This document shows, in pieces, positions 29,828-36,719 of a stretch of DNA of 51,852 nucleotides. The notes under the pieces were generated by a model. It searched no databases. It had not been told where the DNA came from and saw nothing but the letters and a program-made list of their open reading frames with translations. Within the stretch, counting starts at the first letter, position 1. Each line of letters opens with the position of its first letter. Source of the DNA: Candidatus Uhrbacteria bacterium CG_4_9_14_3_um_filter_50_9 (GTDB lineage Bacteria; Patescibacteriota; Patescibacteriia; UBA9934; GWF2-40-263); NCBI GenBank assembly GCA_002791295.1, contig PFWU01000001.1, positions 1-51,852 of the forward strand, written 5' to 3'. A program made the position numbers and the translations under genes.

Positions 29828-30889
29828 TTATTCAAATTGACTCATCTCTACGAGGTGCGGAATCACATAGTTCACAAAATGATTTCCATTTTCCACAACG
29901 GGCACTGTCTCTTCGTTGTAGACCGTGTTCCAATCTCCTGCGTTTACACGGAACCAGGTGACAAATGAATTGCGGACGGACTCGAGCATTTCAACCGTGT
30001 GCCCATACGTGGGTTGGATATGGTCTTTCTCTTGCTGAATACGCCAATAGTACCCAAGCCCATCAACCCCTTTCATAAACTCAGCGGCTTCACGCTCTGC
30101 CCAGTATGTGTCATCTGCACAATCATGGTCGGCGGGACTCACCTCTTCCCTATCCTCACCCATTACACGTCCTAACTTACAACCAATCGTCGTAAAAAAT
30201 CGACTTGAGGGCCCCTCCCAATCTGAGAGGAATTTAATACCGAGCTCTGGATAACGAGCAACAACACCTGCGGCACCTGTGACTCCATACGAAAAACTTG
30301 CTAGGCCAATATTGTATGGATTCACAACTGTGAACTTTTTTGCCGCTTGAACAATGGCAGCAATACCATCTTGATCAGCAAAACCATAGAAATCCTGTTC
30401 ACCCTCACTTTCACCAACACCGAGTGTTTGAAAGGCAACAACGACAAACCCTTCTGCTGCGAGCCATTCCATCTCGTTTACGTCATCTTTCGGAGCGACG
30501 GTAAATCCAGATCCATCACCAATGCCACCTGAGAGCAGGACAACCATGGGCAGAGAGCTGTACCCATCAGGAATGGCATACCAAACCTTTTGAACATGAA
30601 ACGTGTTCGGATTTACGATCTCAGCCTCATAGGTCTGAATGGTCGTGCCACGGACATCAGTTGTTCTAAAGGATTCTCCTGACGTGATCTCTGCATCCAG
30701 AATACGATTCCACACTGCATCTTCATTCCCCACAGTCTCTTCGTCTAATTCCACAAAAGGATCATCCAGTCCTTGTACTTCACGTAACAACTCCTCAATG
30801 TAAACCTGTTCTGTTTTGGAATAATTCCACGCCCTCAAACCACCAAAGGCCAGAGCTGTGAGGACGACAAAAAGTACGGCACGTTTCAT
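29828..30889 (-). CDS. Secreted protein, possibly an alpha/beta-hydrolase
   Basis: Signal peptide MKRAVLFVVLTALAFGG (start taken at ATG 30889). GLASFSYGVTG could be a nucleophile elbow variant. Functional call is weak. Confidence 0.5.
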   Translation of the reverse strand: MKRAVLFVVLTALAFGGLRAWNYSKTEQVYIEELLREVQGLDDPFVELDEETVGNEDAVWNRILDAEITSGESFRTTDVRGTTIQTYEAEIVNPNTFHVQKVWYAIPDGYSSLPMVVLLSGGIGDGSGFTVAPKDDVNEMEWLAAEGFVVVAFQTLGVGESEGEQDFYGFADQDGIAAIVQAAKKFTVVNPYNIGLASFSYGVTGAAGVVARYPELGIKFLSDWEGPSSRFFTTIGCKLGRVMGEDREEVSPADHDCADDTYWAEREAAEFMKGVDGLGYYWRIQQEKDHIQPTYGHTVEMLESVRNSFVTWFRVNAGDWNTVYNEETVPVVENGNHFVNYVIPHLVEMSQFE

Positions 30890-30907
30890 TGTATCTTGAT
30901 TCATAAA

Positions 30908-30936
30908 TTGAATGCTTTGTAGCCACATGATAACAT
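30908..30936 (+). promoter_or_regulatory. Promoter TTGAAT-17-TAACAT aimed at the 5' arm of the folD-upstream palindrome
   Basis: TTGAAT 30908-30913, TAACAT 30931-30936. The predicted start (~30943) coincides with the first paired bases (30940-30943). Confidence 0.5.
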
Positions 30937-30939
30937 AGT

Positions 30940-31100
30940 GGGGCTATCCCAAAACTCCGACATGAGCATCTTGCACAGCACAGCCGGCTGCAGCTTGGTA
31001 AAAAAACAGAGAAATAGCGCTGCTATTCCTCTATTTTTTCACCGGCGCTTCGCTCGACTGTGCTGGCAATCTGCATCATGCGGAGTTGTGGGACAGCCCC
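30940..31100. ncRNA. ~160-nt long imperfect palindrome / candidate structured RNA (6S-like closing stem, bubble, apical stem), strand unresolved
   Basis: 30940-30959 pairs with 31081-31100 (18 bp plus 2 mismatches). 30961-30983 pairs with 31058-31080 (20 bp with bulges). Unpaired 13/14-nt bubble (30984-30996 / 31044-31057). Apical stem 30997-31018 / 31022-31043. Confidence 0.5.
30997..31044. terminator. Central bidirectional terminator-like hairpin of the folD-upstream palindrome
   Basis: A7-stem-loop-stem-T6. The 11-bp core AGAGAAATAGC/GCTATTCCTCT has an A-C mismatch in the + sense that becomes a G-U pair in the - sense, where it is followed by GTTTTTTT. Confidence 0.55.
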
Positions 31101-31115
31101 TAGCGCCGCTTTTTT

Positions 31116-31955
31116 ATGGCAAAAATTCTCGATGGAAAATTACTAGCTCTCACGATTCGCGGTAAGATTCGCGATCGTGTCAGCACCCTCCCTTCAGAGC
31201 CAGGCCTGGCGGTGTTGTTGGTTGGAAATGACCCGGCATCCCACACCTACGTTGACTTGAAAAAAGTTGCGTGCGAAGAAGCGGGCATTCATTTTGAATT
31301 GTTTCTTTATGATGCGAGCGTGGGTGAACAAGAGTTGATTGATAAAATCCATGAGCTCAATCTACGAACAAACATCCATGGAATTCTCGTACAGCTTCCC
31401 CTCCCCACTCAGGACGCACATGTCATCATTCCTGAAATCGATCCATTAAAAGATGTGGATGGTTTCCACGCTGAAAATCTCAAGCGGCTGCGTGAAGGAA
31501 AACCTTGCATTGCCTCTGCAGTTGCGCTCGGGGTCATGAAGCTTATTCGTGCAGCTGTCGGTGACGGACCTCTCCCACCCACGGCCACGATTGTGTCTTC
31601 ACCTTTTTTTGCCGTCCCACTCGAAACACTCCTGAGAGAACAACGGGTGGAAGTCACAGTGACTCAGGCTGAAGACCCTGAGCTGGTGGACAAAACAAAA
31701 AAAGCGGACATCTTAGTTGTTGCAGAAGGGATCCCCAACCTCATCCGTGCCACACATGTGAAACCTGGCGCTATCGTTATCGATGTTGGAACGACCAAGG
31801 TGAACGAGGTATTAAAGGGTGATGTGGATTTTGATGCTGTCGAACCCATCGCAAGCGCTATCACTCCTGTCCCAGGGGGTGTCGGGCCTATGACCGTCGC
31901 CATGCTGCTTGTGAATATTCTCAAAGCCTACCAACTTCAGAATATTGACACATAA
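31116..31955 (+). CDS. folD: Bifunctional methylenetetrahydrofolate dehydrogenase/cyclohydrolase
   Basis: Family-typical full-length sequence (ILDGK, VGNDPAS..YV..K, GILVQLPLP, PVPGGVGPMT). Confidence 0.93.
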   Translation: MAKILDGKLLALTIRGKIRDRVSTLPSEPGLAVLLVGNDPASHTYVDLKKVACEEAGIHFELFLYDASVGEQELIDKIHELNLRTNIHGILVQLPLPTQDAHVIIPEIDPLKDVDGFHAENLKRLREGKPCIASAVALGVMKLIRAAVGDGPLPPTATIVSSPFFAVPLETLLREQRVEVTVTQAEDPELVDKTKKADILVVAEGIPNLIRATHVKPGAIVIDVGTTKVNEVLKGDVDFDAVEPIASAITPVPGGVGPMTVAMLLVNILKAYQLQNIDT

Positions 31956-36590: not shown

Positions 36591-36719
36591 GGGACTGTTC
36601 CTGAATGCGCGATCTTGGCTTTCACGGGCACCCAGTCATCGCTTCAACGTCCATTTGAGGACGTTTTCAGCGATCGACAGCCCGTTCAAGCCAATCTCAT
36701 CGCATTCAGAAACAGTCCC
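36591..36719 (+). ncRNA. ~130-nt long imperfect hairpin between dnaB and ybaB (structured leader or small RNA candidate)
   Basis: Pairing blocks: 36591-36599/36711-36719, 36601-36609/36701-36709, 36615-36621/36688-36694, 36625-36629/36680-36684, 36638-36643/36669-36674. Apical AACGTCC-ATTTGA-GGACGTT (36646-36665) is followed by TTC. Confidence 0.45.

Follow-up and report, generated by a model that had tools for sequence, protein, structure and literature searches.

A probable type II MITE in the folD spacer of a Candidatus Uhrbacteria genome and its conserved, strand-biased hairpin core

What is the long palindrome that lies in front of folD in Candidatus Uhrbacteria bacterium CG_4_9_14_3_um_filter_50_9? 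The window (the whole 51,852-nucleotide stretch of contig PFWU01000001.1 that was analysed) places it between folD and a divergent gene. A first-pass annotation, made from the letters of the sequence, took it for a locus-specific RNA: a plus-sense RNA with the layout of 6S RNA and a central bidirectional terminator or, alternatively, a minus-strand small RNA antisense to the folD leader, or two convergent small-RNA units sharing a terminator. The features that bear on the question are the following.

29828..30889, minus strand: divergent flanking gene of 353 amino acids, outside the element; N-terminus resembling a signal peptide, weak match to alpha/beta-hydrolases
30936..30939: possible left target-site duplication, TAGT, or TAGTG counting G30940 (from the sequence)
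30940..31100, minus strand (the better-folding, motif-defined "strong" strand): probable hairpin MITE copy, subfamily A, 161 bp (covariance model)
30940..30959: left terminal inverted repeat, plus-strand sequence GGGGCTATCCCAAAACTCCG, pairing with 31081-31100
30983..30996, minus strand: conserved internal loops, 3' side, AAGCUGCAGCCGGC; family consensus cGcAGcCg (columns 108-116)
30997..31043, minus strand: apical hairpin with A-run, AAUAGC-AGC-GCUAUU tip and U-run; contains the family's conserved G.U pair
31044..31058, minus strand: conserved asymmetric internal loops, 5' side, GUCGAGCGAAGCGCC; family consensus cgagCGAg (columns 45-52)
31081..31100: right terminal inverted repeat, plus-strand sequence CGGAGTTGTGGGACAGCCCC (repeat finder)
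31101..31104: possible right target-site duplication, TAGC, or TAGCG (from the sequence)
31116..31955, plus strand: folD, flanking gene outside the element; Pfam THF_DHG_CYH (E 8e-33) and THF_DHG_CYH_C (E 2.5e-42)

The hairpin in the folD spacer

The palindrome takes up most of the 226-bp spacer between the minus-strand gene start at 30889 and the folD start at 31116; with the element and one repeat copy removed, the spacer is 61 bp. It holds no transposase gene, and the open reading frames spanning its 161 bp are all spurious. The 353-amino acid product of the divergent gene matches Peptidase_S15 at E 7e-4, under the Pfam cut-off.

That 30940-31100 forms one long imperfect hairpin, as first annotated, stands. 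A repeat finder recovers the terminal arms (20 nt, 90% complementary), inner arms at 30976-30986/31055-31065 and apical arms at 30997-31018/31022-31043 (22 nt, 86% complementary). As RNA, the minus strand of 30930-31115 folds at -114.9 kcal/mol, a z-score of -13.1; the plus strand reaches -90.9 kcal/mol, a z-score of -9.0, and 0 of 200 shuffles equal these values. Equally sound is the observation that the transition mismatches are A-C in the plus sense and G.U in the minus sense: the minus-strand helices of this copy hold 5 G.U and 0 A.C. The open central bubble of 13/14 nt, on the other hand, disappears: the fold gives 5 base pairs there, with a 1-nt bulge, a 2x3 loop and a 3x2 loop. In a 62-copy alignment of the family the columns of 31044..31058 coincide with that supposed bubble, and pairs within the region covary (helix 3; pairs 51-122 and 52-121).

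The signals that would make this hairpin a transcription unit fare less well. The promoter proposed at its upstream edge is there as sequence (TTGAAT at 30908-30913, a 17-nt spacer, TAACAT at 30931-30936), but it matches only 8/12 consensus positions, and pattern scans of 30700-31300 called neither promoters nor terminators, this site included. A U-run after the apex had been ascribed to the minus sense only; the plus strand has T6 as well, next to the T7 of the minus strand. An intrinsic terminator would combine a conserved G+C-rich hairpin with a U-tract; that combination is not found here, and the stem is A/U-rich.

An A-run, a hairpin and a T-run at the apex, in an element with a promoter-like site on one side and the folD ATG on the other, do bring to mind a cis-regulatory leader or a bidirectional terminator for folD and/or the divergent gene, and a terminator-like 3'UTR model weakly resembles the window copy (28.5 bits; gathering score 48.4). 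The terminator scan is nevertheless negative; a T-run of at least 5 follows the apex in only 26/59 copies of the family on the strong strand and 24/59 on the weak strand, that is, in ~40% on either; many copies lie between genes read in the same direction, where termination would have polar effects; the subfamily A end motif (below) is not found in most genomes of the order; and the element is missing from the seven folD upstream regions of relatives that were examined (from 13 loci retrieved). Such a role is highly improbable, and the central bidirectional terminator falls with it. The absence from relatives is also what the first-pass annotation had itself named as counting against an RNA gene tied to this locus.

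Rfam leads to the same place. Scans of the whole window at gathering score, of the region at E <= 10 and of six diverse copies at E <= 0.1 returned sub-threshold matches to generic hairpins only; no family was matched. The resemblance to 6S RNA extends to overall size (~160-175 nt) and a rod-like shape and goes no further: there is no 6S model match at E <= 10, the central bubble is not open, the genome contains nine of these hairpins, from three subfamilies, and target duplications and insertion-sequence (IS) ends mark the family as mobile. A 6S RNA, or a 6S-like RNA-polymerase-binding RNA, is scarcely tenable on this evidence, which disposes of the plus-sense reading. The antisense small RNA and the convergent pair do not hold as stated either: no Rfam family matches, the bubble is paired, and the element is multi-copy, mobile and missing upstream of folD in the relatives examined. 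The consequence for annotation is the removal of a false candidate 6S/sRNA gene.

Copies, duplicated targets and insertion-sequence ends

What the first-pass annotation overlooked is that the palindrome is repeated. The source assembly (1.07 Mb, 55 contigs) holds nine copies in three subfamilies. BLAST within the assembly finds two other full copies, C45:11194-11354 and C38:9667-9827, at ~96% identity to the window copy, and the homology ends sharply, exactly at the palindrome borders; five more copies match over the central 60-80 nt only. These eight, each 160-161 nt long, sort into three subfamilies by their outer arms, and a covariance model built from them detected the ninth; it scores 30940-31100 at 168.8 bits on the minus strand (E 1e-39) and 73.4 bits on the plus strand. 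Applied more widely, the covariance model finds copies in 14/73 genomes of the taxonomic family and in 29/162 genomes and 17/55 genera of the order, with 1-7 copies per carrying genome and a length that is nearly always 159-162 nt. The distribution is patchy: the sister genome of the same genus (G001) has 0 copies.

Sites are not shared, and no orientation is preferred. Across genomes, both flanks are in common in just one pair of copies; all other sites are non-orthologous. Relative to neighbouring genes, copies are arranged as <E< (21), >E> (16), <E> (9) and >E< (9), and by coding bases 33 loci stand against 29. Copies on one contig, 4-10 kb apart, can have opposite orientations (G155:C19, G095:C4), and many are found inside co-directional gene pairs or tight operon junctions, either way round. 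The exceptional pair, L134 (G156:C18:111257) and L157 (G158:C2:67072), comes from two species of one genus; copies of different subfamilies occupy one and the same intergenic region, homologous on either side, and could be independent hits or a replacement.

The direct signature of transposition is found at the level of the family. With the boundary taken from the model, a perfect 5/5 duplication is present in 7 of the 59 copies that have flanks, and allowing +/-1 nt adds 4 more; among about 1,000 offset controls there are 0. In genome G155, each of the 7 near-identical copies sits between perfect 5-bp repeats, and the repeated sequences are varied (CCAAG, CTTAT, CATAG, CATAG, CTATA, CTACA and TTGTC). 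The window copy itself has TAGT/TAGC (3/4 matching) or TAGTG/TAGCG (4/5), and the other two subfamily A copies have no target duplication; the evidence at this locus is weak taken alone, that for the family is strong. Subfamilies with AGACC ends seem to generate 3-bp duplications instead of 5-bp ones. An orthologous empty site was found neither by DNA search of the genus, where the sister genome is too divergent, nor at the folD loci of 14 relatives, whose upstream neighbourhood is non-syntenic; contigs from public metagenomes break at the repeat and yielded no joint that skips the element. The public DNA runs that contain the region are groundwater and aquifer metagenomes; in runs X1, X2, X5 and X13, the assembler contigs (compared over window 30500-31500) stop at the element borders. 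One public contig links the left flank of this locus to a C38-type variant and the right flank of C38, reflecting either an assembly artefact at the repeat or recombination between copies.

The ends of the element, whose motif persists from one subfamily to another, tie it to insertion sequences. One end motif, GGGNCTGTTCCCRAAT, occurs in 33/162 genomes, while its reversed control finds almost no matches. On contig C11 of genome G071, GGGNCTGTTCCCRAAT ends bound a 1,262-bp IS with a CAGAA duplication at its flanks; its 333-amino acid reading frame matches DUF772 (E 2.5e-16) and DDE_Tnp_1 (E 1.7e-9), both over the Pfam cut-offs. Because its NCBIfam scores fall below the curated cut-offs (IS1182, 135 bits against 270; IS5_4, 106 bits against 140), the assignment is left between IS5 and IS1182. 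The ends of subfamily A, the type of the window copy, are G[A/G]GGCTGTCCCAAAACTC and differ from GGGNCTGTTCCCRAAT. They cap another IS: the motif occurs at contig ends (G011, G019, G072, G089 and G155), and on G019:C2 the subfamily A end is followed, ~60 nt further in, by a DDE_Tnp_1_6 reading frame, the C-terminus of a transposase (E 7.6e-18). Ends of the same type are known from the IS5 family, in ISNme1 (GAGACCTTTGCAAAA) and ISPg4 (GAGACTGTTGCA), and type II MITEs that have only their ends in common with the parent IS have been described (PMC4596501).

Genome G155, the one with a recent burst of copies, belongs to another taxonomic family than G071; it has a transposase fragment at a contig start and IS ends at six contig ends. 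Over the 70 residues available, the transposases of G071:C11:27160-28158 and G155:C5:1-210 (L174, L175) are 99% identical as protein. Sequence comparison of this kind suggests that the IS spread by recent horizontal transfer between the two families.

A second MITE family in the genome of the window, 128-129 bp long, is bounded by the same ends (GGGACTGTTCCC.AAT) and has perfect 5-bp duplications; its members form a single long hairpin with G.A-containing loops. The window contains one of them at 36591-36719, a 129-bp copy with GGGACTGTTC..GAAT ends whose target duplication, ATAAC, is perfect; the family has at least 7 copies in the genome and a core unrelated to that of the 161-bp element. 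Two odd elements of the same genome, C38:11640-11720 and C39:9583-9635, are hybrid and miniature forms: one has a subfamily A end on a 128-type core; the second, ~50 nt long, contains little beyond two ends back to back. From their sequences, end types and cores appear to recombine.

Multiple copies, sharp borders, 5-bp duplications, IS-matching ends, non-orthologous sites, either orientation and patchy distribution together lead to one identification: the palindrome is very probably a non-autonomous type II MITE of 160-161 bp that bears the ends of IS5/IS1182-type insertion sequences found in Candidatus Uhrbacteria. Acting in trans, a DDE transposase would have cut and pasted it into a 61-bp spacer between the hydrolase-like gene and folD, with the weak promoter-like site directly upstream of the insertion point and the folD ATG 15 nt beyond it. 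The leader of any folD mRNA starting upstream would then include this hairpin, in its weaker plus sense. The seemingly structured 226-bp spacer becomes, on this identification, a 61-bp spacer plus an insertion. In the genome of the window, tblastn found no transposase homologue of either type, and no long pair of ends marks an autonomous element; since the matching transposase is missing, the nine copies are probably stranded. They would be immobile relics, with a subfamily A trio still ~96% alike and a window duplication that has decayed, and their mobility in this genome probably belongs to the past. As a MITE the element is of an ordinary kind, although the family was not found in the literature searched, which gave no account of any MITEs or hairpin repeats from Patescibacteria either. 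Streamlined ~1-Mb genomes of this group are thereby seen to harbour IS5-type elements that are active, along with several MITE families sharing ends.

The conserved core and its strand

Mobility accounts for where the element is found, and not for all of what it is. A MAFFT alignment of 36 non-redundant representative copies served for the analysis of covariation. In the consensus structure 90.7% of the cells are paired, against 37-46% in slid controls; double compensatory changes are found in 49 of the 50 pairs, and the covariation score is 0.70 against 0.11-0.17 in controls. The arms are more variable than the centre. Beyond the ends, the most conserved columns of the 62-copy alignment are two asymmetric internal loops, A/T runs, a G.A-containing loop and an AAUAGC-AGA-GCUAUU tip; a tandem G.A motif is conserved across the order, and the pair 78-95 is G.U in 23 of the 36 representatives.

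The hairpin also has a polarity. With copies oriented by their asymmetric loop motifs and the count confined to the helices of copies outside the training set, the motif-defined strand has 236 G.U against 62 A.C. G.U exceeds A.C in 52 of 54 independent copies, and the motif-defined strand is the better-folding one in 57 of 59, by a mean of 16 kcal/mol. The minus sense, for which the first-pass annotation had read the mismatches as G.U, is indeed the strand that counts when folded. Given the balanced gene orientation and the opposite orientations on the same contig, neither read-through transcription nor replication direction explains this bias. A lock to one replication strand was considered and rejected: coding orientation is balanced, coding strands are positively skewed and same-contig copies are opposed. 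The flanks of the strong strand do show negative GC skew at 46/61 loci, despite balanced coding orientation; this was given no weight, since coding strands have positive skew themselves.

A conserved core, a strand-specific G.U bias and arms that vary more than the centre are not predicted by a plain MITE. Selection on the lineage of the element seems to have favoured folding of one of its two strands in single-stranded form, whether as RNA or as DNA. Since copies are not kept at fixed loci, that selection most likely acted on propagation of the element rather than on service to folD. Conserved core, G.U bias and complete covariation exceed what a plain MITE needs, and they make the selection of hairpin MITEs as folded single strands a testable matter; core and strand polarity are the only parts of this story that deserve further work.

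Much of the same evidence could be read as the mark of dispersed genes whose minus-sense ("strong") transcripts are small RNAs, for example regulators or protein-binding RNAs, with the IS-like ends incidental or only a vehicle. The preponderance of G.U on one strand, the better folding of that strand, the conserved G.U pair with several asymmetric loops and the covariation of the whole stem all speak for it. Against it, neither inspection of the consensus nor a scan reveals a conserved internal promoter, and copies lie at non-orthologous sites, in either orientation within tight operon junctions and in one case inside the 3' end of a gene. The spread is accounted for by target duplications and IS-type ends, which leaves small-RNA genes improbable.

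A strand-specific fold would also be explained if an HUH-type enzyme mobilised the hairpin in the form of single-stranded DNA, as happens with REPIN/RAYT or IS200/IS605; the asymmetry of the hairpin and its maintenance by compensatory change are consistent with such a mode. It is a very improbable one: HUH elements use a fixed short target and leave no target duplication, whereas varied 5-bp duplications are present here (which also sets the element apart from REPIN/RAYT), the ends match those of DDE-type IS, and the opposed same-contig copies of G155:C19 and G095:C4 speak against a replication-strand lock.

The MITE identification can be retained and extended. It is possible, if rather unlikely, that the ~130-nt core between the IS5-type ends is a strand-specific structured RNA or single-stranded DNA module that binds a host or transposase-associated protein. 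Its marks could be the GAGCGAG / GCGCAGCC loop pair, the tandem G.A and the conserved G.U beside the AAUAGC-AGA-GCUAUU tip, and it could have been kept through the radiation of the order, its stems rebuilt by compensatory change, while being joined to different IS end types. If such a module exists, the fold-back form might present both ends as a single duplex IS end, and the hairpin would either be needed for mobilisation or confer a benefit that lets the elements persist in 1-Mb genomes.

Comparison with known repeats, and some unusual copies

The closest described counterparts are type II MITEs with IS5-family ends, ATR of Neisseria meningitidis (parent ISNme1) and MITEPgRS/BrickBuilt of Porphyromonas gingivalis (PMC4596501). 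Like these, the Uhrbacteria element is short and gene-less, has IS5-type terminal inverted repeats around a core unrelated to the interior of the parent IS, and is present in multiple intergenic copies with short target duplications; the subfamily C end, GAGACCTCTGCAAAAG, matches that of ISNme1 at 14/15 positions. Unlike these, it holds a fixed length of 159-162 bp over an order-wide radiation, the whole of it is one hairpin kept by compensatory changes, with conserved central loops and a strand-specific G.U bias, its duplications are mostly 5 bp, and its host is a ~1-Mb Patescibacteria genome. The 128-129-bp family of the same genome shares ends, 5-bp duplications and the single-hairpin form, and differs in core and length.

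Correia elements (CREE/NEMIS) of Neisseria and ERIC/IRU of enterobacteria are imperfect intergenic palindromes of ~100-160 bp that lie in both orientations relative to genes and fold, in transcripts that include them, into long RNA hairpins. Processing of the RNA is documented for both; Correia elements duplicate TA, and ERIC is not known to have a parent IS. The Uhrbacteria element resembles them in being an intergenic imperfect palindrome in that size range, present in both gene orientations; it has no sequence similarity to either, and its ends and duplications differ from those of Correia elements.

Three copies are noteworthy for their site or their make-up. The C38:9667-9827 copy (L097) sits in the 3' end of a gene for a 428-amino acid Y-family (DinB-like) polymerase, whose reading frame now extends ~60 nt into the element to a stop codon inside it. 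At G158:C1:380204-380365 (L131 1501-1662), the copy abuts or slightly overlaps a tmRNA gene match (L131 1614-1984; 42.7 bits, E 3e-14, slightly below gathering score). Finally, G157:C48:1977-2189 (L140 1501-1713) is a variant of 213 bp: its ends and outer arms are normal, and other sequence stands in place of the conserved centre.
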